In this document: in pieces, positions 6,663-62,254 of the stretch
Position numbering within the stretch: position 1 is the stretch's first letter
Layout: every line of letters starts with the position of its first letter
NCBI GenBank assembly: GCA_021731695.1
Contig: JAKFWZ010000078.1
Coordinates: 25,073-89,072 of the forward strand
Direction: 5' to 3'
DNA: 64,000 nt
Origin: Candidatus Daviesbacteria bacterium
GTDB lineage: Bacteria > Patescibacteriota > Microgenomatia > Daviesbacterales > UBA10151
The notes under the pieces: model-generated
What the model saw: the letters and a program-made list of their open reading frames with translations, nothing else
Told to the model about the DNA's origin: nothing
Databases searched by the model: none
Program-made: the position numbers and the translations under genes

Positions 6663-6674
6663 AATTTAAAATTT

Positions 6675-14019: not shown

Positions 14020-14120
14020 GTCTTAATCAAAACAGAAAATTAATACTTATGTCAACTAATCTGTTTTTTGGTCGGTTTCATCTGAATATTCCAGAACTCG
14101 ATTTACCCGGTTAAATAACT

Positions 14121-15122: not shown

Positions 15123-15149
15123 TTTTCAGGAAGTATGAGTCGGTACATT

Positions 15150-30807: not shown

Positions 30808-31020
30808 ATGCAGATGAAATTAAATGCAAAACAACTTCGTAATTCGTTATTAGTTAAGTCGTTAAAAAACAAAACGAAAAACGAAACAACGAAAAACGAG
30901 ATCTATATAATCTTAGACAATATTGTAGACACTTATAATATTGGTGCGATTTTCAGGCTGGCTGATGCAGTTGCAACTAAAAAAGCTTACCCTTGGGGAA
31001 AAATGGATTATTCTTCCTAG
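30808..31020 (+). pseudogene. Orphan 5' fragment of a SpoU/TrmH methyltransferase gene, about 88% identical to 31792-31965
   Basis: Encodes MKLNAKQLRNSLLVKSLKNKTKNETTKNEIYIILDNIVDTYNIGAIFRLADA, then diverges and stops. It is interrupted by the TA module. Confidence 0.65.
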
Positions 31021-31433
31021 GGTTCTTTGCGGATTATGTTAGTAATTTTATCAAAATCCTCATCGTAAGAGTAAATTGTCTTGGCTGTTGATTGTTGGGT
31101 AAGCACAGCGAGTATTGCATCTGTGAAGTCGATATTTTTATCAACATAATAATCCAATGCTTGAATGATGACTTGTTTATTCTCAACTTTAAAGTTTGGA
31201 TATCGCAACAGAGGAACTAATAAATCCCTTATCTTGTGTTTGGGCAAATTGTAGAGATTGGGGGATGAAAGTACAAAAACTGCATCAGCAATGACAGTTT
31301 CAGGCGCAGATAAAATTAATTCACCTCCTGAGGCCTTTTCAAAAAGAACTGTCGAATCTTTACGTCTACGCTCATCATCACCGGTTAGAAGTCTAATAAT
31401 TACATTTGTATCAACATATGAATCATTTGCCAT
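31017..31433 (-). CDS. vapC: PIN-domain toxin (VapC-like)
   Basis: Motifs YVDTNVIIRLL...TDAILA...YDEDFD. Confidence 0.7.
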   Translation of the reverse strand: MANDSYVDTNVIIRLLTGDDERRRKDSTVLFEKASGGELILSAPETVIADAVFVLSSPNLYNLPKHKIRDLLVPLLRYPNFKVENKQVIIQALDYYVDKNIDFTDAILAVLTQQSTAKTIYSYDEDFDKITNIIRKEP

Positions 31434-31740
31434 ATTTCTCTTTTAAATAATCCTCACGGGCTATATTTCGCACTTGCTTCCAAGGAAGGGGTTTTTTGAG
31501 TTTTCCTGCACCACCACTTAAGGATTTAATGTCAGGATATTTGGCAGGTGTCACCTGGACTAAGCCGCCTGGGCTGATAACAAAAGCCACTTTATCATTA
31601 GTATCTACTCCTAAATGTTTACGTACCTCAATAGGAATAGTTATTTGTCCTTTACTGCTTAATGTAGTGACTAATTGTTTAGAATGGGTATTTTGTAGCA
31701 TGAGTAAGAATATATTATCATTGTCCTTACTTACCGTCAA
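31423..31740 (-). CDS. AbrB/MazE/SpoVT-fold antitoxin
   Basis: Motif SSKGQITIPIEVRKHLGV. The likely start is Met14. Confidence 0.6.
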   Translation of the reverse strand: MTVSKDNDNIFLLMLQNTHSKQLVTTLSSKGQITIPIEVRKHLGVDTNDKVAFVISPGGLVQVTPAKYPDIKSLSGGAGKLKKPLPWKQVRNIAREDYLKEKYGK

Positions 31741-31789: not shown

Positions 31790-32332
31790 ATGAAACTTAA
31801 TGCAAAACAACTTCGTAATTCGTTATTCGCTAAGTCGCTGAAAAAGAAAACGAAAAACGAAACAACGAAAAACGAAATTTATATTGTTTTAGATAATATT
31901 CTGGACACTTATAATATTGGTGCGATTTTCAGGCTGGCTGATGCTATTGCCGCAAAAAAAGTTATGATTTGTGGTGATTCAGAAATTCCGCCAAACCACA
32001 GAATTAAAAAAGCCTCAATTAATACTACAGAAGTTGTGGACTGGAGCTATTCAGAAACAACGGCTGAGGCCATAAAAAATTTGCGTAAAACTGTTTCAGG
32101 GATTCAAATTGTAGCTATAGAGCAGGCGGAAAATTCAATTCGTTATGATGAATTTGAATATAAATTTCCGATAGCTTTAATCGTGGGGCATGAAACCGAC
32201 GGTATTTCTAAAGAGGTTTTGGATGAGTGCGATGGGATTGTAGAAATGCCAATGTATGGAATAAATATCAGTTTAAATGTAATGGTTTCACTGGCGATTG
32301 TTCTGTATAAAGCACTGGAGAAAATTCAGTAA
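31790..32332 (+). CDS. SpoU/TrmH-class RNA 2'-O-methyltransferase
   Basis: Motifs IVLDNILDTYNIGAIFRLADA and IVGHETDGIS. Confidence 0.7.
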   Translation: MKLNAKQLRNSLFAKSLKKKTKNETTKNEIYIVLDNILDTYNIGAIFRLADAIAAKKVMICGDSEIPPNHRIKKASINTTEVVDWSYSETTAEAIKNLRKTVSGIQIVAIEQAENSIRYDEFEYKFPIALIVGHETDGISKEVLDECDGIVEMPMYGINISLNVMVSLAIVLYKALEKIQ

Positions 32333-34134: not shown

Positions 34135-35028
34135 CTATGGTTTTAAGTTCGGAAGAAATAGCGCGTAATCGAGTCCGTTAACAGTACCGTCGCCGTTTAA
34201 ATCCGCTTTTTTCTTTAAATCTGTATCAAGCTCATTGCCCCATGCGCTATAAACAACAGAGAGATCGATGCTATTAATTAACGAGTCAGAATTGAAATCA
34301 AACGATGCGGCAGAGGAACTTGCTACAGGATTACGGGAGGCTAAAGGGCGTGAGGTAGCAAGTGGTTTTATTGAGGCTGAAGCAGAGGCTTGAAGAGATT
34401 GAGGGGGGTTTGGGGCTGCGCTTTTAACAGAGACTATGGCATTTTGGACAGGAGCTAAAGAGTTTGTCGTGCTGCCAAGAATATTTATCTGTGTTTGGGA
34501 ATTGTCCAGTGAGATAATTGTTGAGGGCGCTGCTTTTTTTGAAGTAAAACTCAAAGTTGCGACTACTCCGGAACCTGAAATTCCGGCATTGCCATCTGTC
34601 CCCAAGGAAACTGATGCAGAGCCCGGGGCCATTACCGGCGCAATTAAAACTTTGGGCAAAAACTCTTTGGGTGTTATGCTTGTCAACTCTAAAATTTCAG
34701 GATCATATTTTATGGCCAGCTTAGCGCTGGTGATTTGATTGTTATTGGCGTTTGCAAAAATATCAATGCTAAATTTATCTCCAACTTTAGTGTCCGTAGC
34801 CGGTGGTTTAAAGGAGAGATCTGTAGGAGTTAAGTTTGCCTGGGTTTGAGTCTGCTGAGGTCTCTGGGTCAAATAGACTCCTGCTCCAACCCCGACAACC
34901 AATAAAAATACAGCAGTTAAGGAGCCTAAAATTTTGGGATTTAAAATACTGTTTTTAAAAATGCTTTTATTTTTATAGCTTTCAGCTGAGATGACGATTG
35001 GTTTATCTTTGGAAGGTATGATTTGCAT
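34135..35028 (-). CDS. Anchored surface protein with cohesin-like domain and C-terminal dockerin-like EF-hand pair
   Basis: N-terminal TM helix. Block DKFSIDIFANANNNQITSAKLAIKYDPEILEL. C-terminus DLNGDGTVNGLDYALFL. Confidence 0.5.
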   Translation of the reverse strand: MQIIPSKDKPIVISAESYKNKSIFKNSILNPKILGSLTAVFLLVVGVGAGVYLTQRPQQTQTQANLTPTDLSFKPPATDTKVGDKFSIDIFANANNNQITSAKLAIKYDPEILELTSITPKEFLPKVLIAPVMAPGSASVSLGTDGNAGISGSGVVATLSFTSKKAAPSTIISLDNSQTQINILGSTTNSLAPVQNAIVSVKSAAPNPPQSLQASASASIKPLATSRPLASRNPVASSSAASFDFNSDSLINSIDLSVVYSAWGNELDTDLKKKADLNGDGTVNGLDYALFLPNLKP

Positions 35029-36031: not shown

Positions 36032-36341
36032 CTTGCGTAAAAGTAGGAAAAAGACCTGTCGATACTATCTAACCGGATAGCTTCGACTCCAAAAGAGTGG
36101 TGGGAAAAAACACGATCAATTAAATGATTGTGAGACAAGAGTATAAGTTTCATGAAAGTGAAGCCAAGCTCTGTCAATTCCAAATTTTAGTAAGCAAAGC
36201 TTGCGATAGTTCCGGCTAACGCCGTGTAACTATCTAAGTAATACTTACTTCGAAAACAATAAATCGAAATTTCACTTTCACAAGTGATACAGCGTTTTAG
36301 AGTTGGAAAAACTTTTTAAGTGTTTTAAAAACACTTTATTT

Positions 36342-36384
<43 letters not shown>

Positions 36385-36589
36385 TAAGCATGCAAGTCGA
36401 ACGATCTGTAGCAATACAGGTAGTGGCGGACGGTCGAGTAACGCGTGGGGATCTGCCTTAAAGTTGGACATAGCTCATCGAAAGGTGGGGTAATTTCCAA
36501 TGTGAACGTAAGTTCAAAGCCGCAAGGCGCTTTAAGATGAACCCGCGTCCTATCAGCTAGTTGGTGGGGTAAAAGCCTACCAAGGCATC

Positions 36590-36621
<32 letters not shown>

Positions 36622-37159
36622 GGAATAGCACTGAGACACGGGCTATACATCTACGGATGGCAGCAACTGGGAATCTTGCGCAATGGGGGAAACCCTGACG
36701 CAGCGACGCCGCGTGGAGGATTGAAGGCCCTCGGGTTGTAAACTCCTTTTGACTGGGAAGATTATGACTGTACCAGTAGAATAAGCACCTGCTAACTACG
36801 TGCCAGAAGCCTCGGTAATACGTAGGGTGCAAGCGTTATCCGGATTTATTGGGCGTAAAGTGTTGCGTAGGCTGATTTGCGCATTTTGTTTAAAAGGCTA
36901 AGGCTTAACCTTAGTTTTGGGCAAAATATGGCAAATCTTGATGGTTTAAGAGGGTACTGGAACTTAACATGTAGCAGTGAAATGCGTTGATATGTTAAGG
37001 AACACCAAAGGCGTAGGCAGGTACCTGGGAAACTCATGACGCTGAGGCACGACAGCTAGGGGAGCGAAGCAGATTAGAGACCTGCGTAGTCCTAGCCGTA
37101 AACGATGAATGCTAGTTAGTCCCTCTTTTGGGACCGACGTAAGGTAACCCGTTAAGCAT

Positions 37160-37210
<51 letters not shown>

Positions 37211-37671
37211 AGGCGCACAAGCAGTGGAGCATGTGGTTTAATTCGATACAAAGCGAAAAACCTCACCAGGGTTTGACATGTAGTTGCTAAGCCTAAGAAA
37301 CTAGGCCTCCTTCGAGGGTACTACACAGATGGTGCATGGCTGTCGTCAGCTCGTGGCGTGAGCTGTACCGTTAAGTCGGGTAACGAGCGCAACCCGCATC
37401 GTATGTTAAATAATTCATACGAAACAGCCCCAATTTTTGGGGAGGAAGGCGCGGATGACGTCAAGTCAGCACGCCTCTTACACCCTGGGCTACACACATC
37501 CTACAATGGCGAATAACAACGAGTTGCAAGCCGGTAACGGCAAGCTAATCTCTAAAATTTCGCCCCAGTTCAGATTGAGGGCTGCAATTTGCCCTCATGA
37601 AGTCGGAATTGCTAGTAATCGCGAATCAGCAGGTCGCGGTGAATACGTTCTCGCCTCTTGTACACACCGCC

Positions 37672-38603
37672 TTATAGTATTTAACATAATGCTATAAAAA
37701 AACGCGCGTGGCAGCGTAAATATCTAGTTGGTTAAAGTCCAACCTATACTTAATAGTAGTCAAAAAAATTTGGCAGATCCGATAGAGTAATTTATCGATT
37801 TGGAGGGCCTGAGACAAATAGCAGTCCTCAGATAAAAAAATCTTTTAATAAGTGATCTCAGCCGGGCGGTTTGAGAGAAATTTAACGATTAGGAAAAGAT
37901 TTTTGAGGAATGTTAGGAATAGATATTAACGTGACCCATGGAGATCCTACTGGGAAGAAGGTAATTGCCCAGAGGAAGTCAGCAGATTCATAGTAGGTAT
38001 TATTGACATTTGGGTTAGATTCGGGTTAATCTGAATTTATACCAAATAAATACTGAAGGGATCTACGAAATGTTAACACCAGACTATATTGTTGGTTTAA
38101 CCGATGGAGAAGGCTGTTTTCTGGTTCAGATAAGAACCGATTGTCGAATAGTCTTGAGATATTTTATTACACAACGTTTTGATAATGTCGAACTTTTAAA
38201 CAAAGTTTATGGCTTTTTCAAAATAGGCTATGTATATCGAAAATTTCAGGGAAATGACAAAAAGAAAATGACCTTTGTCTATGAGGTAACGAAACAAAAC
38301 GATATTCAAAATGTGATTATTCCTTTCTTTAGGAAATATCCATTAGAAGGTATCAAAAATGAGTCTTTTAGAAGGTTTGCCCGTATTGCTGAGATTGTAA
38401 AAAATCGACAGGATACACGTAAATTATCTGAAGATGAATTAAAAGAAGTCTGGCATTTGAAGCTCTCTATGAATTCTCTTCATAATGAGCCAAAGGATCG
38501 TCTGAGCGGAGCTCGTAATGATCCCAGAAACATTTCGGCTCGCTTAGTGCCGGAAATCGGCTCGCTAAGTGGGAACGGAAAACAACCTTAAGTTATTCCA
38601 ATC
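37672..38603 (+). mobile_element. Self-splicing intron (probably group I) in 16S near E. coli position 1400, carrying a homing-endonuclease ORF
   Basis: Insertion between ACACCGCC and CGTCA. Contains the LAGLIDADG ORF. Boundaries are good to about 2 nt. Confidence 0.65.
38070..38591 (+). CDS. LAGLIDADG homing endonuclease (intron-encoded)
   Basis: Motif YIVGLTDGEGCF. It lies inside the 16S insertion. Confidence 0.75.
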   Translation: MLTPDYIVGLTDGEGCFLVQIRTDCRIVLRYFITQRFDNVELLNKVYGFFKIGYVYRKFQGNDKKKMTFVYEVTKQNDIQNVIIPFFRKYPLEGIKNESFRRFARIAEIVKNRQDTRKLSEDELKEVWHLKLSMNSLHNEPKDRLSGARNDPRNISARLVPEIGSLSGNGKQP

Positions 38604-38785: not shown

Positions 38786-38805
38786 CCTGCCTGCCGGCAG
38801 GCAGG
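38786..38805. repeat. Perfect 20-nt GC palindrome CCTGCCTGCCGGCAGGCAGG, copy 1 (58 nt after the 16S 3' end)
   Basis: An exact copy lies at 61412-61431. It is preceded by a ggtc-GAAA-gacc hairpin. Confidence 0.85.
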
Positions 38806-46844: not shown

Positions 46845-49079
46845 ATGTGGAATGAGTTAATGGGGGATGAAACTCCTAAAAACAGACACAAACTTTATAT
46901 AAAAATTGGTATTTTGGCAATTCTGCTAGTACTAATTCCGTTGGGTGTTTACTTAGTAAGGCAAACTCAAATTTTTAGACCCAAAGCTGTTGATGAGCAA
47001 ATAAACCCGGAAACTAGTTTTAGTCTTGAAGGACCTTTAGAGCAAGTTATATGTGTTAGGGCTCCCTGTCCGCCGGTGCCTGTTTCTACTTTAAATATAG
47101 GTTCAGAATTCGAGGTTAATGTTTTGGTAAGGTCTGATTTTGATTCAGCAAATGTCTTTAAAGCGAATGTTAATTTTCCAAAAGACCTTTTAGAAGTAAT
47201 AGCCATTGACACTCCCATAATAACAAACCCTCCGATTTGTGGAGGGATTGCCGGTTTAAGCTGTCCTAGCGGTTACTATTGCCGTATGAGCGAGCCTGCA
47301 AATATGCCGGACCAATCAGGTGTATGTTTGCCTGAAGATCAAATCACCTGTAATACCAGTGCCCGGGAATCAGGTTGTCCGAGAGGTTACAGTTGCGAAC
47401 AATACTGTCCTCCAGGCTCTGGAGACTGCTCTTTAACTGCAGGAGTATGTAAGGCAATTTCTTCAGAACCTCAAGCTTGTGGCGGGTATCCAGATGAAAA
47501 CGGAAATTCTCCAACCTGTCCTCAGGGTTATACATGTGATTATTCGGGAAATGACGAGCAGGTTGCTGATCAGATGGGAGTCTGTATTCCGTCGGATACA
47601 GCGCCCAAGTCCTGTTCAGGTCCCACCGATAATTCCTGTCCCGCAAATTACACCTGTTATCAGGATTGCGGGCCGCCTGTTGTCCGAGGAGGTGATCCGG
47701 AACCAGGCTATACCTGTTTAAGCCAGGCTCAAATAGCTTCGCGCGAAGTTAGTGGGTGCCCCATATGTCTTTCTTCATCAACGAAAATCTCCACGCCAAA
47801 AGGTTCTGTTTATGTCTCGGAGCTAAAGGAAGGAATGGAAGTTTATTCTCAAGATAAATCTGGAAAGCAAACAATTGCTAAAATCTTAAAAACCTCATCA
47901 GTTAAAGCACCTCTAACTCATAAAGTGGTACATCTGTCATTAAAAGATGGCAGAAATGCATATATATCCCCAAATCACCCAACCATAAGCGGTGTAACCG
48001 TTGGAGAACTAAAAGCAGGTGATAGCTATGACGGTTCTGTTGTAAAAAGCGCAGAACTTGTGCCCTACACCAGAGGTAGAACTTATGATCTTCTCCCCGA
48101 GGGAGAAACAGGTTTCTATTACGCGGACGGGGTTTTAATGGCCTCAACCCTAAAAGGCTCGGTTAAAGGACTCACAGCCAATGCTCAAAATACAGAGAGC
48201 TCGTGCCGGGAAGACGCTCAATGTGCAGAAGGTTTTTACTGTAAGAGCAGGACGCGCTGCCGAACCCTTCCTGATGGGACAGCCCAGTGTACAAATGTAA
48301 TTGGTGGTGATTGTTATCCTAAACCCAGTGAGGGGGAGTGTGCTCAGGTTATCACTAGGGCCTGTTCCAATACAGCCCCCCAGGTTTGCAGGGATTTTCC
48401 AACGCCTTGTGATGTTCCGGATGGTTGGGTAGTTCCGGGATTAAACTCTAGAAATTCCAACTACTTCATAGTAGATTGGGTTCAAAAGTCCTTTGATAAT
48501 GGTGCTGGGACGATCACTTTAAACGGGAAAAGCCAGGGAACTAAAACCAACCTTACACCTCTCACTATGGTCACTATTAAATTTAAGGCTAAAAAAGCTG
48601 GTACGGGGACAATCTCATTTGGGGACTCCACACAAATACTAAGGCTTTCAGATTCACAAAACATACTCCAGACTAAGAGAAACTTGGAGTTCACAGTTGC
48701 CGGAGCAACGCCTTCAGCTTCTGTTATAGGTGATCCTTGTGGGCCTGGTGGGATAGCCCCTTGTCCTTCCGCATCGGCTTCACCTTTGGCAGGCACTTGT
48801 CATACCACACCAGATTGTTCAGCTAATCAATATTGTCAATACGTTGAGGCGGAATGTTCGGTGGGAAATTGTCCCCGATACGGATACTGCGTGGCAAATA
48901 ATGGAGGCAAGGGCGATGCCAACAATGACGGATTTATTGATCTGGCTGATTTATCGATTCTTTATTCCAGCTTTCTTAAGAATGTAGCAAAACTTGACTT
49001 TAATAATGACAATAAAATTAACAGTATTGATTTTGGGTACATGATTTTACTTCTGCGTTCACTGCGCGTTATTAATTAA
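46845..49079 (+). CDS. Cys-rich surface protein with Hint (bacterial intein-like) domain, cohesin-like modules and C-terminal dockerin-like motif
   Basis: Hint module CPICLSSSTKISTPKGSVYV..LKEGMEVYS...SPNHP...TYDLLPE..GFYYADGVLMAS. C-terminus DANNDGFIDLADL...DFNNDNKINSIDF. Confidence 0.6.
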   Translation: MWNELMGDETPKNRHKLYIKIGILAILLVLIPLGVYLVRQTQIFRPKAVDEQINPETSFSLEGPLEQVICVRAPCPPVPVSTLNIGSEFEVNVLVRSDFDSANVFKANVNFPKDLLEVIAIDTPIITNPPICGGIAGLSCPSGYYCRMSEPANMPDQSGVCLPEDQITCNTSARESGCPRGYSCEQYCPPGSGDCSLTAGVCKAISSEPQACGGYPDENGNSPTCPQGYTCDYSGNDEQVADQMGVCIPSDTAPKSCSGPTDNSCPANYTCYQDCGPPVVRGGDPEPGYTCLSQAQIASREVSGCPICLSSSTKISTPKGSVYVSELKEGMEVYSQDKSGKQTIAKILKTSSVKAPLTHKVVHLSLKDGRNAYISPNHPTISGVTVGELKAGDSYDGSVVKSAELVPYTRGRTYDLLPEGETGFYYADGVLMASTLKGSVKGLTANAQNTESSCREDAQCAEGFYCKSRTRCRTLPDGTAQCTNVIGGDCYPKPSEGECAQVITRACSNTAPQVCRDFPTPCDVPDGWVVPGLNSRNSNYFIVDWVQKSFDNGAGTITLNGKSQGTKTNLTPLTMVTIKFKAKKAGTGTISFGDSTQILRLSDSQNILQTKRNLEFTVAGATPSASVIGDPCGPGGIAPCPSASASPLAGTCHTTPDCSANQYCQYVEAECSVGNCPRYGYCVANNGGKGDANNDGFIDLADLSILYSSFLKNVAKLDFNNDNKINSIDFGYMILLLRSLRVIN

Positions 49080-52754: not shown

Positions 52755-53885
52755 ATGTTAAGTGTTTTAAGCGAATTCTTAAGTAGAAAATTCACTCCTT
52801 TAAATTTAATTACAATATCAAAATCCAGGCTAATCCAGAATTACGAAAGCTTGAGCAAAATTAATCCGGAAATAAAAGTTGCACCGGTTTTAAAATCAAA
52901 TGCTTATGGTCACGGGATAAAACTCGCGGGTAAAATTCTTGATGAAGTTGACGCACCGTTTTTATGCGTAGATTCCTTATACGAAGCCTTTCAGTTAAGA
53001 ACTCACGCCAAAGTAAAAACTCCTATTTTGATTATGGGTTATATTCATCCGGAAAGCTTAAAGATAAAACAGCTTCCTTTTTCTTTTGCTGTTTACGATC
53101 TGGAGCATGTAAAAGCTTTGAATAAGTATCAGGAAAAAGCCCGGGTTCATATCTTTGTCGATACAGGAATGCACAGAGAGGGAATTGATTTGGATAATCT
53201 TGAGGAATTTTTAGAAAGACTAAAAAAACTTGAAAATATTGAAGTCGAAGGCTTGATGTCGCATCTTGCAGAAGCATCAAAACCAGAGTCTCTATTAACT
53301 AAAAAGCAGATAGAAAATTTTGCAAAAGCTAAAGAGATAGTTTTAAAGAAGGGCTTTAAGCCAAAATGGTTTCATATTGGCGGAACTTACGGACTTTTGA
53401 ACAATTTAGCTGCCGGATGTAATTTAGTCCGGATTGGCAGAGCTGTTTACGGGATAGAAGAAAAAGGGGTGGCGGGAATAAATCTCGAACCTGCTTTAAA
53501 ACTGACTACAACTTTGGTTCAGATAAAAAAAGTTAAAAAGGAGGAAAAGATTGGTTATAGCGGAACTTTTACAGCAGATAAAAATATGAGCATAGGGATT
53601 TTGCCATTAGGCTATAACGAAGGTGTAGACCGGAGGCTTTCAGATAAGGGGGTGGTGCTGATTGACGGTATTAAATGTCCCATTGTCGGGCTTGTTAGTA
53701 TGAATATCACGACTATTGATATATCGAACGTAAAAAGACCTGTTTTGGGGCAGGAAGTGGTTGTTTTTTCGGATAATGATGAAGATCCAAACTCTTTAAT
53801 TAAAGCCTGTAAAGCCGGAGGAATTTTGCCGCATGAGATGTTAATTCATATCGCAGAATCAACCAAGAGAGTTATTATTTCCTAG
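52755..53885 (+). CDS. alr: Alanine racemase
   Basis: PLP motif VLKSNAYGHG. C-terminal barrel region. Confidence 0.8.
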   Translation: MLSVLSEFLSRKFTPLNLITISKSRLIQNYESLSKINPEIKVAPVLKSNAYGHGIKLAGKILDEVDAPFLCVDSLYEAFQLRTHAKVKTPILIMGYIHPESLKIKQLPFSFAVYDLEHVKALNKYQEKARVHIFVDTGMHREGIDLDNLEEFLERLKKLENIEVEGLMSHLAEASKPESLLTKKQIENFAKAKEIVLKKGFKPKWFHIGGTYGLLNNLAAGCNLVRIGRAVYGIEEKGVAGINLEPALKLTTTLVQIKKVKKEEKIGYSGTFTADKNMSIGILPLGYNEGVDRRLSDKGVVLIDGIKCPIVGLVSMNITTIDISNVKRPVLGQEVVVFSDNDEDPNSLIKACKAGGILPHEMLIHIAESTKRVIIS

Positions 53886-53953
53886 TGATTAGTGATTAGT
53901 GATTAGTGATTAGTGATTAGTGATTAGTGATTAGTGATTAGTGATTAGTGATT
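53883..53953. repeat. Tandem heptamer (TAGTGAT) x10 with six-frame stops, between convergent genes
   Basis: The first unit supplies the alr TAG stop. The minus-strand neighbour has its TAA stop at 53945-53947, inside the tract. Confidence 0.9.
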
Positions 53954-54487
53954 TAGGGAGTTGAGGGCTTGGTTAAATTTACCGTTTGATTCGATCCTGA
54001 CCTTTAAAACTTTTATTGCGCCAATCTCTCCGTTTCTGTCGCTTGCGATAATAAGTTGATATGAATCAGGGATTGTTTCTGTCGGGATCTGAAAACTGAA
54101 ATTTCCTTCATAATCCGGAGTTATGCCATGCTTTAATCCATCCGGTGCCAGCCATATTTGAAGTGTTGTGCCGGCAGTAGTTGTCCCGCTGATAAAATCG
54201 CCCTGTTTCATTAAATATTGCCTATCAGGATCAAGAGAATCAATCGCGTAATTGTTGGGTTGGACAGCCAGATATTTTTGATAGAGAGGAATTCTTAAAA
54301 ACCAAATTAAAACAAGAATGCCGATAATTTCTGTGATAATTAGCGGAAAGATAAGTTTTTTTCGTTTAGCGCGGGTTAAACCGAATTGATAAGTAATAGC
54401 ATTCATATAAATTTGACGGTAGACGATTGAAGATGGAAGATTGTGGGAGATGGTAGAGAATGGAAAGTAGATAAAATCTATCTTCAA
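53945..54487 (-). CDS. Anchored hypothetical protein
   Basis: TM helix ILVLIWFLRIPLY followed by a soluble domain. Confidence 0.4.
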   Translation of the reverse strand: MKIDFIYFPFSTISHNLPSSIVYRQIYMNAITYQFGLTRAKRKKLIFPLIITEIIGILVLIWFLRIPLYQKYLAVQPNNYAIDSLDPDRQYLMKQGDFISGTTTAGTTLQIWLAPDGLKHGITPDYEGNFSFQIPTETIPDSYQLIIASDRNGEIGAIKVLKVRIESNGKFNQALNSLNH

Positions 54488-54539
54488 TTTTCTATCATCA
54501 AAATACTATCCTCCATTTTCTACCGTCTATAGTCTAAGA

Positions 54540-54842
54540 TTAATTCCCCTCAAGTGCTCTCTGTATTTCTTCAGGAGTTAGGTCTTCAGGATCGCTATTA
54601 ATGGTTTCACAATCTGCGTTATAAGGGTCATTGCATGCAGTATCATCCTCAACCGGATCGGAGACTGGAATAGGGGAAACCGGAATTTTACCGTCACCAA
54701 TTTTAATTACCCCCGTTCCGATCAATGCAAGAGTTGTGGCTAAAATAAGTCCAATCATAGTTAAAACCGCAAGAGCAGAAAAACCTCTGAAAGTGATGAG
54801 TGATGAGTGATGAGTGATGAGTCGGGCAGATTTTTTTATCAT
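54540..54842 (-). CDS. Small single-pass protein with acidic C-x8-C tail and a (GTGATGA)x4 tract in codons 8-17
   Basis: ATGA overlap with the upstream gene. Codons 8-17 (LITHHSSLIT) are encoded by the heptamers. C-terminal motif ACNDPYNADC. Confidence 0.45.
   Translation of the reverse strand: MIKKSARLITHHSSLITFRGFSALAVLTMIGLILATTLALIGTGVIKIGDGKIPVSPIPVSDPVEDDTACNDPYNADCETINSDPEDLTPEEIQRALEGN
54793..54820. repeat. Heptamer tract (GTGATGA) x4 inside the 5' coding region
   Basis: Four perfect units. One unit is 7 nt, not a multiple of 3. Confidence 0.85.
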
Positions 54843-55765
54843 TGTTGTAGGGCTTTTACGGTGATCTCGTTAATTTTGCGTCCGAGTGAATAAAGTATAA
54901 AAGTCTGACCATTTGGCCCGATGTCGAGAATATCTTCACTGCCGTTTCTTGATCTTTCAACAAATTTGCCATCTTTTGTTTTTACTTCAACCGGATCAGA
55001 TGTTTCATCAGAAACATCCCATTCAATTTCAACTTCTCCGCAAGTTGATGTGCCTGCAGGAATTATGCACGGATTAGGATTTGCAGAAATTACGCCTGAA
55101 GGTTGCGTCAAACCCATTTTTTTAACCAGAATATCAAAAGCATCTTTTGGTGGTATATTTTTCATCTGGAGATCTTCTCTTTTAGCATCGGCTTCGCTAA
55201 TTGGCAATAATTTCCCCTTGTATGAAACCCTTAAAATCTTTTCGCCCGAATCATTTGTACAAAGATAAACGGTCGCATCGTCTTTTATGCTTTCTCCGGT
55301 GCCGTCTTCTAAAGGAACATCGATCATAACTTTAAGCGATGTGTTTACTCCTAAATCAGCTTTAACGCAAAGATTTGGTTTTCCTTCTTCAATTTGTAAA
55401 TACTTTAAAACACGGTTGAATTTTTTAGCCAGTTTATAGTCAAACTTAATTTTTCCGCGGCAGGTTCTTAAAGCATCTGGGTCCTGAGACTGCAAACAGG
55501 TACTGTCTTCGGAAACCACCCGGCTTAAATATGATTTGAATTCCTGTGCAGTTCTTATTCCCAGATCTTTTTTAAATACACCATATTGTCCTTTTTCACT
55601 CCAGTCTAAATATGTCTGCATAACTTTGAGTCTTTCCTGGCTAACCTGGACTTTGTTTGCAGAATCCTGTGCAAAAACAGCCTGATTTATTGAGATAATG
55701 ATTATGAGAAATAAAAGAGTTAATAGATAAACTTTAGAAGTAGTGGACAGTGAGAAAAATTTCAT
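54839..55765 (-). CDS. Secreted protein of the CV[KP]ADLG-domain family
   Basis: Signal peptide. Block YLQIEEGKPNLCVKADLGVNTS is shared with 56445-58817 and 59337-60071. Confidence 0.5.
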   Translation of the reverse strand: MKFFSLSTTSKVYLLTLLFLIIIISINQAVFAQDSANKVQVSQERLKVMQTYLDWSEKGQYGVFKKDLGIRTAQEFKSYLSRVVSEDSTCLQSQDPDALRTCRGKIKFDYKLAKKFNRVLKYLQIEEGKPNLCVKADLGVNTSLKVMIDVPLEDGTGESIKDDATVYLCTNDSGEKILRVSYKGKLLPISEADAKREDLQMKNIPPKDAFDILVKKMGLTQPSGVISANPNPCIIPAGTSTCGEVEIEWDVSDETSDPVEVKTKDGKFVERSRNGSEDILDIGPNGQTFILYSLGRKINEITVKALQQ

Positions 55766-55829
55766 GGCTCATTCTCTAGAATATAACCTTTGCTCAGGAG
55801 TTTGCAACATTTTCTGTAGGATTCTTACA

Positions 55830-56039
55830 CTAAGGAAGAAGGAAAACATCATTGCTATCGTTGCAATTTCCTTCTTCTCCTGACTCACAAATAACCTGAG
55901 GCTGATTTGCCTGCTCAATTTTTTTTTGTTTATCCACCTCGGAAAAATAGGTGAATGTCTGGGTAAATTCCCACATTATAAAGATGCCGATTACCACAAT
56001 GAAAAGTAACGATAGGGGTGATATGCCTTTTTGATTCAT
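55830..56039 (-). CDS. Small single-pass protein with acidic C-x8-C tail
   Basis: N-terminus MNQKGISPLSLLFIVVIGIFIMW. C-terminal motif ICESGEEGNC. Confidence 0.35.
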   Translation of the reverse strand: MNQKGISPLSLLFIVVIGIFIMWEFTQTFTYFSEVDKQKKIEQANQPQVICESGEEGNCNDSNDVFLLP

Positions 56040-56196
56040 AATTTATGGACGCTTGAAGATAGAAAATGGAAGATAGTGGTAGAGAATGGAAAATTGAGAA
56101 TGGACGTCTTAGACGAAGTCGCAAGCCTCGCTTATCTTCGATTCTCAATCTTCAAAATACTATGTTCTATCCTCGATAATCTATCGTCTAATATTT

Positions 56197-56442
56197 CTAA
56201 TTATTATCATCCTGATTAACAGTCGAAAGTATTTCAAGCTGTTCCTGATCAAGTTGGTATTTTTCCTGAACAGGTGCGTATTTTGGATCATTGGAAATGT
56301 TATAAGGGGTAGACTCGGGTGAGGGAGTTACCGAAGCAATTGGAGATTGTTTAAAAAAACCCATGTAAAATGCAAAGCCTAAAAAGGCAAGAAAAAGTAT
56401 TCCGATTATTATAAAAATTCCACTTGATGCTTTTTGGTTCAT
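56197..56442 (-). CDS. Small single-pass protein (MNQK paralog)
   Basis: N-terminus MNQKASSGIFIIIGILFLAFLGF. It starts 2 nt after the upstream gene's stop. Confidence 0.35.
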   Translation of the reverse strand: MNQKASSGIFIIIGILFLAFLGFAFYMGFFKQSPIASVTPSPESTPYNISNDPKYAPVQEKYQLDQEQLEILSTVNQDDNN

Positions 56443-56444
56443 AC

Positions 56445-58817
56445 TTAATTAATAGGACACGTATCTATAGCATTAGGTGTTCCCGGATATATTTGATTTG
56501 ATGAATTCCTGCACTGTCCACATGAGTCGCAAGTTGGATAATTCCCGGGGCAACTGTGAGAGTATTCTGAGTCAGGGCTAAGCTTATTGCAGTAGAAATC
56601 CTTATTAAAGACTCCTTTAATAGTACAGTATAAGTTGTCGTCAATTCTCGATAAGTTGCATGCACCTGTAGAAAGAGAGCAGGTGAAATTGGATTCATAA
56701 CATCTTGGCAGTGATGAATTCGACGGTGAGGAAGTGGAATTGGAAGTTAGGGAGGTGTCATTTCCTGACTCGACTGAAGTTTTGCCGTCACAGAAGGTGT
56801 TTTGGATAAACCCGGGCTGATTTTTGAAAAGAGTTTCCGCGTTTCGGTAGTGGGTTATGACATCCGTTGGCAGGGTTGCGCAGGTTGGATTCGGTTTAAA
56901 CTTTTGATCTGTTGAAAGAATCGGCGTAAAAGTACCGCCTGCAAAAATCATCCAAATTTTTTGCGGGACCCGCCTGTCGTTACAAATATTAACTCTTCCG
57001 GTTGTGTTGTTTGCGGAAGTTGCAGTGAATAGCGGATTTAAACCTAAATCAGCTTTAACGCAAATTCCCGGAATGTCATTAAAAACTGCATAAAATGCGG
57101 ATAATCTGGCGGCGGTTTTAGCCAGATCAAATCTGGTTCTGAATTTTGAATCGATACATTGTCCGACGTTTGCATTATCCGGGCATGTAGGTAATTCGTT
57201 GACGATTGAAGTTAATTCATTCTTGGCGAGGGTTGAGACGATTCGGAGATTGCCGCTTGGAGAAGCGGGCAACCTTTGGTTTAATGCATCAAAACTTGAT
57301 TTAAATCCAATAATTTCTGCCTTAGTTAAGCTAATTGGAATTGTACCTCCTCCGCCGGAACTTGCAGATGGAGCAGGGCTTGTGCTTGCAGCGGGAGAAG
57401 CACTTCCTGATGGAGATGCTGATGCACTGCCTGAGGGTGAAGATGAAGCAGAGGATGATGGGGATGGTGAGGAGGAAGGTGAAGCAGCAGCACACTGATT
57501 ATTAACGCATTTGTTGGATGCACAATCTTTGTTTTCGTTACAGGCTCTTCCTGTGGCTGTGGTGCCTCCTGCGCATTTATTGTTTGTGCAGGTTCCCGAC
57601 TGGCACTCCGACCCGCTGGTGCAGGAAGAGCTGCCGGTTTTCGTGCCTGTTGAATCACATTTTCCGTTAGTGCAGGATCCTGATGCGCAATCGGTGCCTT
57701 TAGTGCATGATGAACCTGAGGTTTTCGCTCCTCCGACGCATTTTCCTCCCGAACAATCGCCGGATTTACACTGGGAGTCCTTACCGCAAGACTTTCCTGC
57801 ATCCAATAGACTGCCGGTGCTGTCGTTTTTGCTTCCCGGGGCGCATTTTATATTCTGGTTTTCCGGATCCTTAGGAACAAAAGCCACGATTTCGCTGGGG
57901 GTTATCTGTAGAATTGCCGGGAAAGGTGTCCAGCCGTTATATGAGACAGCGTCTGGGGTCCCGATGGTATTCGGCACGCCCGAATCATTTTGCCCCGAAC
58001 CGCCGGTTACATAGTTCGTATAGATGACAATTCGGTCATTATCATAGCCTGTGGCTACATAACCGCTGGTTGACTGTTTATCGTTCCCGGTTCCTCTTTG
58101 CTGGAATTTTTCTCCGTTTGGATCCTTGACCGATGTTTCGATCATCGTTCCCCGGTCAAAATGAGACATTGTGGCTAGAGGGAATTTTCCGTTTGCCGGG
58201 CTTGCGGTCCCCGGGTTTTCGGTTAAGCATGAATTAGAGTTTGCATCATAACCTAAATTTTCGCATTTATAATATTGGTTCCAATCTTTAACTTTGAGAT
58301 ATTCATCCTTATACGGGTCCTCTTTTAAAGTATCGTTGGGGTTTTTGCCCTTTCTTATTGTATATATCCATTCATCACCGTCCGCGCTAAATTTATAAAC
58401 CACATCCTTAAACTCCTTTGCTCTTAGCTCTTCGCCTTTTTTACCATCGAATCCGCTGTCCCGGCCGAATTGTTCATATTCGGGACCTGAACTTTTCTTT
58501 GGTTCAATATTGTCTTCGTTGGAATTTTTAAACGCCACATAGCGGTTACTCTCACTAAGACCAACCTTTACGCATCCGTCGGGCGGGGTGGGGAGAGTGG
58601 CCGCGAACGGGACTATGTTTGTCCTTTGCTGGACTAAGTAAACCGTCAGGCCGATTGCCGCAACTAAAAATAAGGGAAGGAGTATCTGGGAAATGCCCCG
58701 CTGGTTCAGCGTTATTCGTTGTTCGTTATTCGTTGTTCGTGATTCGTTATTCGCTGCAGACAGAGGCTGTTTTTTTTGATGAACGATGAACGAAAAACGA
58801 TTAACCAGATCGGGCAT
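56445..58817 (-). CDS. Large N-terminally anchored Cys-rich surface protein (CxxGxxCxSGxCxxGKC x5 and CVKADLG domain) with heptamer tract in its 5' end
   Basis: Cytoplasmic tail KKQPLSAANNESRTTNNEQRIT, then a TM helix. Five Cys-knot-like repeats, a Ser/Pro linker, and the block SAFYAVFNDIPGICVKADLG. Confidence 0.55.
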   Translation of the reverse strand: MPDLVNRFSFIVHQKKQPLSAANNESRTTNNEQRITLNQRGISQILLPLFLVAAIGLTVYLVQQRTNIVPFAATLPTPPDGCVKVGLSESNRYVAFKNSNEDNIEPKKSSGPEYEQFGRDSGFDGKKGEELRAKEFKDVVYKFSADGDEWIYTIRKGKNPNDTLKEDPYKDEYLKVKDWNQYYKCENLGYDANSNSCLTENPGTASPANGKFPLATMSHFDRGTMIETSVKDPNGEKFQQRGTGNDKQSTSGYVATGYDNDRIVIYTNYVTGGSGQNDSGVPNTIGTPDAVSYNGWTPFPAILQITPSEIVAFVPKDPENQNIKCAPGSKNDSTGSLLDAGKSCGKDSQCKSGDCSGGKCVGGAKTSGSSCTKGTDCASGSCTNGKCDSTGTKTGSSSCTSGSECQSGTCTNNKCAGGTTATGRACNENKDCASNKCVNNQCAAASPSSSPSPSSSASSSPSGSASASPSGSASPAASTSPAPSASSGGGGTIPISLTKAEIIGFKSSFDALNQRLPASPSGNLRIVSTLAKNELTSIVNELPTCPDNANVGQCIDSKFRTRFDLAKTAARLSAFYAVFNDIPGICVKADLGLNPLFTATSANNTTGRVNICNDRRVPQKIWMIFAGGTFTPILSTDQKFKPNPTCATLPTDVITHYRNAETLFKNQPGFIQNTFCDGKTSVESGNDTSLTSNSTSSPSNSSLPRCYESNFTCSLSTGACNLSRIDDNLYCTIKGVFNKDFYCNKLSPDSEYSHSCPGNYPTCDSCGQCRNSSNQIYPGTPNAIDTCPIN
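58711..58752. repeat. Heptamer tract (GTTATTC/GTTGTTC/GTGATTC) x6 inside the 5' coding region
   Basis: Six 7-nt units encode NNESRTTNNEQRIT. Confidence 0.85.
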
Positions 58818-58991
58818 ATAAATTAACTATATAAATTGAAGGAGCGTTTGTCCAGTTAATGATGAGGGATAGGTTTAGAGTTATACGGTTAGGAGGCTGG
58901 TATCGTGAGGAGGTTAGGAAGATGGTGCCTAATACCAAAAACCCTTTAACCCTAAACCATACGAGCTTCGTTACCCTTTAACTCTAAGCTA

Positions 58992-59333
58992 TCATTTAGC
59001 GTAAATAGTAGATTCGGACTCTGTAGGATTTCTTTCACCGTCATCTGTCCAGGTCATAAATTGAGACGAAGTGTCGCATCCTGTGTAATCAGTATCAGGA
59101 CACTCAGGATCAGCAGGGTGAATGATAGCAGTAGAAGAGTTTTGGTTTTGAACAGGAACTTCAGAAGCTGCCTCTTTAGGTTTAGATTGCGCAGCCCAAA
59201 AACCATAAAAAATTACTCCTGAAACGAAAATTACAGCAACTGAAATAAATATAATTAACGATGTAATACCTTTTTCTGAGTTTGGCATTTGCTTGTACTG
59301 AGTAAAGCGAACGCTAAGTTTGACATTTTTCAT
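58992..59333 (-). CDS. Small single-pass protein with acidic C-x8-C tail
   Basis: TM helix LIIFISVAVIFVSGVIFYGFW. C-terminal motif ECPDTDYTGC. Confidence 0.35.
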   Translation of the reverse strand: MKNVKLSVRFTQYKQMPNSEKGITSLIIFISVAVIFVSGVIFYGFWAAQSKPKEAASEVPVQNQNSSTAIIHPADPECPDTDYTGCDTSSQFMTWTDDGERNPTESESTIYAK

Positions 59334-59336
59334 TTT

Positions 59337-60071
59337 TTACAGCCCCACCTTTTCTTTGGCTAGTTTGATTTGTTCCGCAAAACCCTGCTCAATAGTATCT
59401 CTTGAAGGATCTTCCTTACCTGTGGCTGGCTTTAGCTGATTGTTAACAACAACTCTCCAAACTAAAGCACCATCATTGCCGGAGCATAGCAGCAATCTTC
59501 CTGAACCTCCGCCTGCTGCATTTGCAGGGATTTGTGTGCCTACTCCTAAGTCTGCAGGAACACATAGTCCTGCGACACCTTCTTTAATAGCATAAAATCT
59601 TGCTAAGTTATTAGCAACTTTTGCATCATAATAGGAAGTTGCAACTGTTGTTTTATCTTCAGGTGTTTCTTTGCAGACAGGGGAAGAGGTTGAAGTTGAT
59701 GTTGACGAAGAAGATCCGGAGCCTTTATAAGCTTTTTCACCTTTACCGATTCCGGGAGCATATCCACCAGGATCTTTGCAGGGAATTCCTTTTGTAATAA
59801 GTTCTTTTTCGTGCTCAGCAACCCACTCTTCAACAGCGTTTGGTCCGTAAACAGCTGCAAAGTCAGCTTTAGACTGCTCGCTTTGTCCGCCTAGAGTTTG
59901 TCCGTCGCAGGCTACAGTTTTTCCCGCGGCCCACGGTAAAAAGCCCGTGCCGCTTTGAACTAAAAGAGTTCCGGCAATAATGCCTACTGCCACTAAAGCT
60001 AAAATTAAAACAGGGGAAAATCCTGATTGTTTATTAATATAGTATGTTTTGTTTTTCATTTTGCTATACAC
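59337..60071 (-). CDS. Anchored protein of the CV[KP]ADLG-domain family
   Basis: Block RFYAIKEGVAGLCVPADLG. The gene overlaps the upstream gene by 16 nt. Confidence 0.5.
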   Translation of the reverse strand: MYSKMKNKTYYINKQSGFSPVLILALVAVGIIAGTLLVQSGTGFLPWAAGKTVACDGQTLGGQSEQSKADFAAVYGPNAVEEWVAEHEKELITKGIPCKDPGGYAPGIGKGEKAYKGSGSSSSTSTSTSSPVCKETPEDKTTVATSYYDAKVANNLARFYAIKEGVAGLCVPADLGVGTQIPANAAGGGSGRLLLCSGNDGALVWRVVVNNQLKPATGKEDPSRDTIEQGFAEQIKLAKEKVGL

Positions 60072-61537
60072 GCGTTTGCTTTAGCTTTTGCAGCTTCAAG
60101 TTTTTCTTTAGCCTTTGCTTCGATTTCGCTGTTAATTTTTCCTTTAACATTGCTTAAGATTTGATTAAATTCATCGTATCTCGTAAGCGCGATTTTTGCA
60201 TCTGCCTCAGTTGCGGCCAGATCTTCAGGAGTAAATACACCGATTGCATAGCAGGGGATATTAAGACCATTTGAATCAACTCCGCAGGTACCTGAAGATG
60301 AAGATTTGCCTGGAGCTGATTGAGAAGCGGGGGCTTCACCGCCTGTTGATTGTGCTGACGGAGCTTTATTTGTACTTGCTCCAGTACTTCTACTGCCTGA
60401 ATTGGTCACAGCTAATTTAGCCGCTGTGCAGCGTGTGTATTGAACAGCAACAGCCGCACCATTTTTTATCACAGAGGTTTCGCCTATCTCGCACCCTTCT
60501 CTTTTGTCTGTATCAGTTGGATCGTTATCGCCTCTACACCAGGAGGTTTCTACTTGTGTACACTTAGCAGTCGTATAAGTACATCTGGCTTTCTTTTCAA
60601 TTACGTAACAGCCCAGTGTATTTCCAGCACATTCGTCACTGCATTGCTGCGTATCAGTTGCTGAAGCAGCTGATTGCCCCTTAGGTGAGCAGCCGTCGGC
60701 ATAAGGGCCAGTATAACCTCCCCGACATTCAAGATTGGTCTGGCTGTGTTTTTTATTGCACCAGTTTAGATCATCAGAATTAAATTCTTCACAGCTTGTC
60801 TGATTTGCTTTTACAACGCAGCCATCGTTAAACGGTCCTCCGGATCCACCAAAGCATTCATAATTGGCACCATGTGATTTACAGAATGAAGTTGGTTCTC
60901 CTTCGCAGGTGTTAGTCATAGTATTGATCTGCGGTACATTCGTGAGAGTGCAGAGACCGGTATTAATATTAATTGAAGTATTCACTCCATAACCTGCGCA
61001 ATCATCAAGATTACGGGGTGGTGCACAGCGGGCCTCACTTGAAGAGATATTTATACAGATTTTCCCAAAATTGCTACCCTGACTGCAATTTTCAACTATT
61101 TGACCATTTTGATTCCGGATTTCATTGCCACCACCACAATGTGTTTGGTTTAGATTAGTTGGGGAATTAATACAACTTGCCTGACCGGCAGCTTCAACGC
61201 ATACATAATCTGCACCATAATCTGCGCAATTCTCTTTAAAACCATTATTAGCCTTGAACCTGACAGATGCGCCATTACAATAGGTGTCGAAAGAATTTGT
61301 AGGATTGGAGGCATCATCTGCTCTAGGTAAAAAGTTAACACCATTCTGAATAAGTAAAACGCCTGCGGCAATGCCGAAGAGGAGCAAAACTAAAACGGGG
61401 ATGGGGGCGAAACCTGCCTGCCGGCAGGCAGGGCCTTTTTCGTGATTCGTTATTCGTTCATCGTTTGTCGTCAGCGCAGGTCGCTTTTTGCTATGAACTA
61501 ATAACCAATAACGACGAACTATTTTCGGCAGGTTCAT
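60056..61537 (-). CDS. Anchored Cys-rich surface protein. Its 5' coding region carries degenerate heptamers and the 20-nt GC palindrome
   Basis: Tail KKRPALTTNDERITNHEKGPACRQAGFAP, then a TM helix, then a domain with about 40 Cys. Confidence 0.5.
   Translation of the reverse strand: MNLPKIVRRYWLLVHSKKRPALTTNDERITNHEKGPACRQAGFAPIPVLVLLLFGIAAGVLLIQNGVNFLPRADDASNPTNSFDTYCNGASVRFKANNGFKENCADYGADYVCVEAAGQASCINSPTNLNQTHCGGGNEIRNQNGQIVENCSQGSNFGKICINISSSEARCAPPRNLDDCAGYGVNTSININTGLCTLTNVPQINTMTNTCEGEPTSFCKSHGANYECFGGSGGPFNDGCVVKANQTSCEEFNSDDLNWCNKKHSQTNLECRGGYTGPYADGCSPKGQSAASATDTQQCSDECAGNTLGCYVIEKKARCTYTTAKCTQVETSWCRGDNDPTDTDKREGCEIGETSVIKNGAAVAVQYTRCTAAKLAVTNSGSRSTGASTNKAPSAQSTGGEAPASQSAPGKSSSSGTCGVDSNGLNIPCYAIGVFTPEDLAATEADAKIALTRYDEFNQILSNVKGKINSEIEAKAKEKLEAAKAKANACIAK
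61412..61431. repeat. 20-nt GC palindrome, copy 2 (inside the coding region, followed by a T-run on the + strand)
   Basis: CCTGCCTGCCGGCAGGCAGG followed by GCCTTTTTC. It encodes PACRQAG on the minus strand. Confidence 0.85.
61443..61470. repeat. Degenerate heptamer tract (GTGATTC GTTATTC GTTCATC GTTTGTC)
   Basis: Four related 7-nt units encode TNDERITNH. Confidence 0.7.
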
Positions 61538-61862: not shown

Positions 61863-62254
61863 CAGGTTTAATGATTAAAGAATGATGATTAAGGATTAAT
61901 GAATAAAATCATTAATCGTAAATCTTTAATCACTAATCAATCTTTTTTTGACTTGGATATGGATTTTTGACGAAGAATAGTTGAAAGTCCATATCCGGGC
62001 CGAAGATATGGCTTTAATTCTATTAATTCCCACTAGGGAAAGAGGAATAAAGTTTAAGTCCTTGGAGTTTGTACTTTGAAATGTGAATACGACATAAATG
62101 AAGAGCAATCAGCTCTCAGTCAACAGTCGTCAGCCAATCGCAAGAAAAGCTGAAGTCTGAAAGCTGAAGTCTGAAAGCTCTTTTATGAGAAGGCCAATAA
62201 GGGTCAGATTTAACATCTGATCCATGAGCGTCGTCGAGACGCTCAAAATAGTCA

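Follow-up and report, generated by a model that had tools for sequence, protein, structure and literature searches.

Heptanucleotide repeat elements in the leader-coding ends of a surface-protein operon of Candidatus Daviesbacteria

The sequence analysed here is a stretch of 64 kb from a contig of Candidatus Daviesbacteria (hereafter 'the window'), whose minus strand carries an operon for cell-surface proteins between positions 53945 and 61537. Three genes of this operon (c100, A790 and B493) contain tandem repeats of 7 nucleotides (nt) close to the start of their coding sequence. We regard it as about an even bet that these tracts are heptamer repeat elements, similar in kind to the STRR sequences of cyanobacteria and to the Rickettsia palindromic elements (RPEs), which occur throughout the Daviesbacteria lineage and are tolerated in leader-coding DNA. 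The copy number is nearly constant, no out-of-frame (OFF) allele was found, like arrays occupy housekeeping and noncoding sites, and some tracts are the arms of palindromes; together these observations point to a repeat family built from heptamers. A preliminary description of the same DNA had proposed a classic slipped-strand phase-variation design acting on surface proteins, and the comparison between species does not support this. The open reading frames (ORFs), with their coordinates and tight junctions, and the 7-nt tracts on which that proposal was built are real, as judged from the ORF list and from Tandem Repeats Finder (TRF).

The three genes and the repeats in their leaders are as follows.

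54540 to 54842, minus strand: c100, a small single-pass protein with a variable leader, an invariant G|F[ST], a transmembrane (TM) helix, a Pro-rich stretch, the loop CNDPYNADC and an acidic tail.
54792 to 54822, minus strand: c100 array, AGTGATG (coding strand CTCATCA) x4.4, 100% identity (TRF), beginning 20 nt past the ATG.
56445 to 58817, minus strand: A790, 790 amino acids (aa), anchored, with an N-terminal domain, four 4-Cys repeats, a P/S linker, the CVKADLG domain and a Cys-rich tail.
58706 to 58808, minus strand: A790 element, a palindromic heptamer element, in frame in the leader.
60056 to 61537, minus strand: B493, 493 aa, N-terminally anchored and Cys-rich, the first gene of the operon; its leader holds a palindromic heptamer element and a GC palindrome.
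61438 to 61520, minus strand: B493 element, an imperfect palindrome of ~83 nt, in frame in the leader.
61413 to 61432, unstranded: GC palindrome of 20 nt, CCTGCCTGCCGGCAGGCAGG, in frame in the B493 leader, encoding PACRQAG.

The heptamers begin 12-64 nt past the conserved ATGs of c100, A790 and B493, and in all three genes a non-triplet repeat therefore lies between the start codon and the functional protein. The tracts described earlier are present, but partner arrays located upstream in the same leaders (58778-58805 in A790 and ~61493-61520 in B493) had been overlooked. Once these are included, the repeats at 58.7 and 61.45 kb are seen as imperfect palindromes of ~83-103 nt. The B493 element consists of a left arm of four heptamers (~61493-61520), a core AGCAAAAAGCGACCTGCGCTGAC (~61470-61492) and a right arm (~61438-61469; the tract given as 61443-61470 in the preliminary description) made of four complementary heptamers, within which TRF reports x2.9 at 92% identity (61439-61458). 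The A790 element has a left arm (58778-58805, x4), a spacer with a run of eight A residues (~58754-58777) and a complementary right arm (58710-58753; TRF x6.3, 83% identity, rising to 93% at period 14). The arms pair at 22 of 28 positions in both elements, compared with 16.4+-1.2 (B493) and 16.2+-1.0 (A790) in shuffled sequences, and arms taken from different unit families pair at merely 12-15 of 28.

Over ~83 nt, the B493 element gives a gap-free alignment with elements in loci of relatives (L numbers), namely that in c100 of L021, those in B493 of L019 and of L010 and a further one in noncoding DNA of L010. The palindrome core is near-identical across the copies of the window, L021, L019 and L010. 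The general plan of ~83 nt comprises four heptamers, a conserved core (GTTCAT-AGCAAAAAGC-N3-CTGNGCTGAC) and four complementary heptamers, and the core with its 4+4 arms can be recognised in the B493, c100 and A790 leaders of several species as well as at the noncoding site. Judged by these alignments, the B493-type copies are homologous copies of a palindromic element of defined length, located in different genes and different species. The GC palindrome CCTGCCTGCCGGCAGGCAGG is also repeated, with two exact copies in the window (61413-61432, in frame, and 38786-38805, intergenic) where 0 are expected. The peptide GPACRQAG occurs, in addition, just before the G|F position in a c100 homolog of another species (P0041).

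Empty sites can be identified. The ATG of A790 (58817) and the motif upstream of it (TATATAGTTAATyyATG) are kept in all orthologs, most of which read M-x-L-x-L-NQRG from this ATG and have no element. A790 of the window, L010, L001 and L020 has an additional 50-100 nt between the start and NQRG. B493 orthologs show the same pattern, with and without the insert. These sites are considered empty because the orthologs without the element start at the same conserved ATG with the same upstream motif. No in-frame start codon lies downstream of the arrays, which must therefore be translated. For the same reasons we rejected the possibility that the arrays are part of a 5' untranslated region enclosed in over-extended ORFs.

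The c100 gene carries a solitary array, for which no complementary partner array was found in any species. Arrays of ~4.3-4.7 copies lie at the same distance from the c100 ATG in L001, L003, L005, L013, L014 and L017, with a different unit in each, and five c100 leaders read unit by unit contain exactly four full units each. The unit is CTCATCA in the window and CyCATmA, CTCTTCA, CTATACG, AATCTTA, AAATTTC or TCTATAC in relatives; c100 of L004 has no array. The leaders of 66 family members fall into three classes: those of 5-15 aa have no array, those of 18-21 aa have one x4 array and those of 26-50 aa have two arrays and a spacer. Conservation of the family is high from G|F onward, and proteins with at least 90% identity in their mature part may have wholly different leaders. 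The c100 leader of L020 (6560-6634) carries paired arrays of period 8 (ATTGCTCC x4.8 and AACAATGG x3.8), and the architecture is therefore not strictly bound to a 7-nt unit. The preliminary description had allowed that the tracts might prove to be ordinary coding repeats, conserved only as amino acids. In the relatives it is the 7-nt periodicity of the DNA that is kept and not the encoded amino acids; by the criterion of that description, the tracts are not ordinary coding repeats.

All array-bearing 5' ends checked at the DNA level (27 of 27) are in frame, and no OFF allele was found among these or among ~66 c100-family proteins. Two proteins, P0033 (L018, 1152-1424) and P0062 (L017, 391-600), were considered as OFF alleles and then dropped. 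Their public c100 calls begin only after the leader with its repeats; an intact in-frame ATG is present upstream in the DNA of each, and both are gene-calling artefacts. These miscalls indicate that start-codon annotation is systematically unreliable at such sites in this lineage.

The repeats are not limited to the operon. The window contains 14 period-7 TRF rows in its 64 kb, and only at period 7 are there arrays that combine 4 or more copies with 85% identity or above (4 in the window and 0 in shuffles). A census of 230 kb of non-redundant sequence of the lineage gave 43 tandem arrays of 3.5 copies or more, and the period is 7 in 36 of them. These 36 are divided between the first 150 nt of ORFs (21), intergenic DNA (14) and a doubtful ORF beside 16S (1), with 0 in the interior of real genes, a distribution that weighs less in favour of our reading than it might, since the loci were gathered through this operon and orthologs of a small number of genes predominate among the 5' ends. 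Of 21 leader arrays, 20 have 3.6-4.7 copies, and intergenic arrays reach 10.6 copies. Arrays of like type in the window are found at 2056, 30871, 31847, 35899, 53883, 61864-61939 and 62146, including the following.

2056 to 2129, unstranded: intergenic array, AATCGTT x10.6, exact, between the convergent NUDIX and mevalonate decarboxylase genes.
31811 to 31880, plus strand: TrmH element, a TTCGTnA arm, an A-rich spacer and AAAACGA x4.3, in frame, codons ~8-30 of a SpoU/TrmH methyltransferase (31790-32332).
53883 to 53953, unstranded: intergenic array, TAGTGAT x10.1, exact, between the convergent 3' ends of d180 and the alanine racemase gene.
61864 to 61939, unstranded: inverted heptamer arrays in the spacer between tRNA-Ala and the 23S rRNA gene.

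The longest arrays seen are those at 2056-2129 and 53883-53953, both exact. A further array (62146-62179) lies immediately upstream of 23S, and L010 has a copy of the palindromic element (850-945) in a noncoding region that seems equivalent to the tRNA-Ala/23S spacer. The case of TrmH, a cytoplasmic housekeeping enzyme, resembles those of the operon. The SpoU domain covers only aa 30-173 and the heptamer element lies outside this catalytic domain. The TrmH orthologs of Daviesbacteria read MKLNAKQLR, then a hypervariable stretch, then NEIYIILDN, and at the hypervariable site L022 has AGCCATC x4.3, identical in L023 (independent assemblies of one species). A duplicated copy of the TrmH element is present at 30832-30899. 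The duplication includes the first ~190 nt of the gene (30808-31020 and 31790-31980, ~85% identical by eye), and the two copies flank a PIN/MazE toxin-antitoxin pair (31017-31740), as if the toxin-antitoxin module had inserted while duplicating the 5' end of the gene.

We propose that the elements, as solitary arrays of about four units or as imperfect palindromes of ~83 nt, would survive only in places where an insertion does no harm: in the DNA between genes and within the first ~40 codons. In the operon they occupy the interval between the conserved start codon and the invariant Gly-Phe junction ahead of the membrane helix, and from this position the additional 7-35 residues are translated within the variable leader, which is probably cleaved at G|F or may be merely tolerated. 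Purifying selection would hold the copies in frame, and the arrays would turn over rapidly through replacement or concerted change. Paired arrays may form moderate RNA hairpins just past the start codon of leaderless or near-leaderless transcripts, and the long heptamer-armed hairpins between sub-operons probably serve as transcript-end or stabiliser structures. Slippage by one unit is mechanically possible and would be a by-product rather than the organising principle. An RNA-level role for the arrays is plausible, and they may bring some regulatory benefit. Ectopic recombination may account for the spread of the elements, or each may have a local origin.

Several points, in addition to the sampling of the census, weigh against this proposal. 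As regards mobility, the scan of window ORFs brought up no transposase, the insertion borders of the elements show no evident target-site duplication and near-identical recent copies were not found in these 64 kb of genome. The leader hairpins have no more than moderate stability (z = -1.4 for two of them) and the solitary arrays are unstructured; one RNA-structure role cannot, therefore, account for all of the elements. Some array is present at the same site in about three quarters of c100 orthologs, a high proportion if the insertions were purely neutral and a hint that a repeat is selected for there. In several cases (the window c100, L003 and L010) the array is perfect, and this indicates recent homogenisation by slippage or conversion, as would also be expected of a mutable switch. 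Units that are alike within an array yet different between species may likewise reflect frequent slippage or conversion, or selection acting on the site, and these three features hint that the arrays are more than inert sequence. Finally, cleavage at G|F is deduced from the conservation boundary, and both Glu+5 and a match to the N_methyl model are wanting.

It is possible, if rather unlikely, that the arrays are adaptive regulatory RNAs of the 5' coding end, under selection for what they do to the transcript itself. As 5' hairpins, paired arrays would then set the stability or the rate of initiation of leaderless mRNAs, solitary G-poor arrays would keep the region after the start codon unstructured and intergenic hairpins would set the stoichiometry between sub-operons. 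The features concerned, beyond the leader elements, are these.

54400 to 54545, minus strand: H3, hairpin between c100 and d180; -42.9 kcal/mol, z = -6.3.
56045 to 56190, minus strand: H2, hairpin between a81 and a69 with degenerate heptamer arms (GATAGAn / nTCTATC); z = -4.3.
58826 to 58854, minus strand: promoter-like site, TGGACA-17-TATAGT, ending 8 nt before the A790 ATG.
58850 to 58995, minus strand: H1, long imperfect hairpin between b113 and A790; RNA fold -40.6 kcal/mol, z = -2.6.

The ATGs of A790, B493 and TrmH are preceded, at a distance of 4-8 nt, by the end of a promoter-like -10 box, so that leader hairpins would sit at the 5' end of leaderless or near-leaderless mRNAs, as we infer for A790. 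The arms of the elements co-vary, and an array is present at the same site in most orthologs. All three operon spacers (H1-H3) fold into long hairpins whose arms are degenerate heptamers, and the position of the a81/a69 hairpin is kept in 5 of 6 species although its sequence has changed (z = -5.2 in L013, -6.0 in L016, -4.7 in L014 and -3.0 in L015). The c100 array of the window folds less than its shuffles (z = +1.7, no RNA structure), and the solitary c100 arrays of other species are, by inspection, nearly free of G. A single regulatory function is, however, hard to reconcile with structured and deliberately unstructured versions at equivalent sites. Many orthologs have no array at all, and several of the hairpins are weak: those of the paired arrays are moderate (z from -1.4 to -3.3), with z = -1.4 for the A790 element and -2.5 for the B493 element. 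No Rfam family corresponds to them, the only matches in the window at gathering thresholds being rRNA and tRNA.

Slipped-strand phase variation, in which the gain or loss of one heptamer would shift the frame between the ATG and the mature protein and so turn the gene reversibly OFF or ON in a subpopulation, is in our view unlikely. The unit is not a multiple of three, the arrays lie between the sole usable start codon and the mature part, and their leader-coding position resembles that of the CTCTT repeats of Neisseria opa genes. Several arrays are perfect. In addition, units that are alike within an array and unlike between species require repeated contraction and expansion. Classic contingency loci have long, strain-variable arrays, with widely varying copy number and a sizeable OFF fraction among genomes. 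Across the species compared here the repeat number does not vary in this manner: it is nearly always ~4 in leaders and is identical in L022 and L023, two assemblies of one species. The genomes do not divide into ON and OFF alleles, with every checked 5' end in frame where chance would give one third. Repeats are not concentrated in surface or host-interaction genes either: TrmH and its orthologs carry like arrays, as do rRNA/tRNA spacers and the DNA that separates convergent genes. Moreover, two of the three tracts form arms of a palindrome of fixed length. Low-level switching retains a small probability, since slippage by one unit would indeed shift the frame.

We are more doubtful that Daviesbacteria have a dedicated process, as yet unknown, by which cassettes of ~4x7 nt, whether single or in hairpin form, are written or exchanged just downstream of start codons. 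Were it true, the arrays would be a hypervariable, sequence-independent control module of the 5' coding region, tuning or reversibly switching the surface operon and some housekeeping genes, and would represent a new class of 5'-coding regulatory or mutable element instead of passive repeats. It is very improbable that the encoded peptides matter in themselves, say as leaders with a targeting or regulatory task: every copy of the AACGA-type element is read in one frame, with similar peptides as the outcome (..LLVHSKKQ..TNNE..) in A790, B493 and c100 homologs, but avoidance of stop codons explains the shared frame, the peptide is not conserved between orthologs and even proteins that are 90% identical have unrelated leaders or none.

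The operon that harbours these elements comprises nine minus-strand ORFs within 53945-61537, as found by ORF calling. The remaining six are as follows.

53945 to 54487, minus strand: d180, the last gene of the operon; anchored, weak Ig-like match, probable true start ATG 54406.
54839 to 55765, minus strand: C308, secreted or anchored, with a CVKADLG-type domain.
55830 to 56039, minus strand: a69, a small single-pass protein with a C-x8-C loop followed by NDSND.
56197 to 56442, minus strand: a81, a small single-pass protein without the C-x8-C loop; orthologs are known.
58992 to 59333, minus strand: b113, a small single-pass protein with the conserved loop CPDTDYTGC.
59337 to 60071, minus strand: b244, anchored, bearing the 'CVKADLG' domain; likely start ATG 60059, overlapping the B493 stop (ORF finder: GTG at 60071).

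The order B493-b244-b113-A790-a81-a69-C308-c100, followed by variable genes and a convergent alanine racemase gene, recurs in more than 10 related contigs. B493 orthologs occupy the equivalent position in relatives. The place of d180 is variable, with other genes there in L001, L013 and L014. Genes are tightly packed: B493/b244 (60056-60059) and C308/c100 have ATGA overlaps, and the gaps are 3 nt for b244/b113 and 2 nt for A790/a81. Heptamer arrays are also present in the leader of some a69 orthologs.

The preliminary description had divided the operon into three modules on one plan, each with a large anchored protein followed by a small one, and the modules are not equivalent repeats. The block said to be shared by the large proteins, of ~100 aa, was placed by BLASTP in A790 (aa 536-632) and C308 (77-195), as described, but its third copy is in b244 (124-215) and not in B493. 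The 78 N-terminal aa of B493 are 33% identical to A790, and apart from these only Cys-rich stretches are common to both (BLASTP). C308 starts with an ordinary signal-peptide-like N-terminus and not with an anchor of the type seen in the other large proteins. The C-x8-C loops (ECPDTDYTGC, ACNDPYNADC and ICESGEEGNC) are present and conserved in orthologs, and that of b113 (CPDTDYTGC) is unchanged in 5 of them. The absence of a recognised domain also stands, together with the proposal of a surface system: none of the nine proteins had a match above threshold in Pfam or NCBIfam, and sequence searches of the Protein Data Bank (PDB), made with B493 and with a profile of A790, found no relative. Looking up the exact A790 protein (P0001) returned no contig on record; homologs of c100 and of TrmH (for example, P0033, P0197 and P0215) carry the NCBI name Candidatus Daviesbacteria bacterium. 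We conclude that the operon encodes an uncharacterised, lineage-restricted set of cell-surface proteins of Candidatus Daviesbacteria, a member of the Microgenomates within the candidate phyla radiation (CPR). The proteins of the cluster are related, N-terminally anchored, Cys-rich and probably surface-exposed, with the small C-x8-C single-pass proteins alongside. The AlphaFold2 model of c100 shows one TM helix, the remainder being extended (predicted local distance difference test 67.7). With a single TM helix and an extended chain, predicted at low confidence, the idea that the small C-x8-C proteins are globular pilins was dropped.

Nearly all proteins of the operon have a basic leader ending in Gly, then Phe/Ile-Ser/Thr and a hydrophobic helix. 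G20 of c100 is invariant in 46 aligned sequences and conservation begins right at this Gly, with F/I-S/T and the TM helix next. The NQRG motif is absent from two A790 homologs (P0008 and P0012). This arrangement is like that of type IV pilin-like (class III) signal peptides in its variable basic leader, invariant Gly, Phe/Ile-Ser/Thr and hydrophobic helix of ~20 residues. It is unlike them in that Glu+5 is missing, position +5 being Ala, Pro or Leu. None of the nine proteins matches the N_methyl model PF07963 at E<=1, and the window ORFs scanned include no gene for a prepilin peptidase (peptidase A24). Canonical N_methyl pilin genes adjoin the operon in the relatives L015 and L016; a link between the operon and pili is only a lead.

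Other features of the window lie outside the operon. The 16S (36336-37743) and 23S (from 62260) genes are unlinked, with tRNA-Ala just upstream of 23S. Immediately 3' of the Rfam match to 16S is an ORF for a LAGLIDADG homing endonuclease (38070-38591). This match is 1408 nt long for 1533 model positions and a CTCCTTTCT motif near 38720 resembles the 3' end of 16S; on these grounds, the 16S gene may contain an intron. Four other stretches (2134-9055, 12532-18176, 34135-35028 and 46845-49079) include among their contents a complete mevalonate-pathway operon and proteins with cohesin/dockerin domains, as well as a pilin-like protein with Shufflon_N and Peptidase_S74 domains beside a LamG protein of 1008 aa.

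CPR bacteria are uncultivated, and almost nothing is known of how their surface structures are built and regulated. The window provides a conserved operon of lineage-restricted anchored proteins, including a confidently modelled domain without a relative among solved PDB structures, and a heptamer-based repeat system outside cyanobacteria whose elements are routinely translated in N-terminal leaders and turn over faster than the proteins behind them. What is new here is the occurrence of STRR-like/RPE-like repeats in a CPR lineage, their unusual restriction (within coding DNA) to 5' ends and their fast turnover. There are practical consequences. Leader length is a poor criterion of homology in the Daviesbacteria lineage, gene callers mis-set start codons at repeat-bearing leaders (as for P0033 and P0062) and the arrays could be used as natural strain markers. 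Literature searches found no paper on heptanucleotide repeats or phase variation in CPR/Patescibacteria. Were sequencing reads to show length heterogeneity, this would be, to our knowledge, the first contingency-locus system described in CPR.

Among known systems, the opa genes of Neisseria have CTCTT repeats in the signal-peptide region of surface-protein genes. Such contingency loci share with the Daviesbacteria arrays a non-triplet repeat in the leader-coding part, where a change of one unit would shift the frame. The Daviesbacteria arrays differ in being short (~4 units), often paired as palindromes and present also in housekeeping genes and noncoding DNA, and no copy-number polymorphism or OFF allele was seen in the comparisons made here.

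The Daviesbacteria units (AACGAnn, ATCACTn and others) are presumably different from the published STRR units. The elements do not belong to the cyanobacterial STRR sequence families, their host being Candidatus Daviesbacteria. They resemble STRR sequences in their 7-bp units, short tandem arrays, number per genome and inverted arrays forming intergenic hairpins. In heterocystous cyanobacteria these 7-bp repeats form hairpins between genes and may stabilise transcripts, and a function in transcript stability or translational coupling has been suggested (PMC2670836). Apart from the phylum, the differences are that many of the arrays described here lie in ORFs, in frame and within the first ~40 codons, and that there is a defined 4+4 palindrome with a conserved core.

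RPEs insert in frame into ORFs (PMC10969869). The Daviesbacteria elements are shorter (~83 nt against ~150 nt), have arms made of tandem heptamers and are confined to the 5' end or leader rather than to internal loops; no hallmarks of transposition were seen in the window. They are like RPEs, and like repeats of the miniature inverted-repeat transposable element (MITE) type, in being palindromic, in lying in frame in unrelated genes, in adding a peptide segment without destroying the gene and in having empty sites in orthologs.

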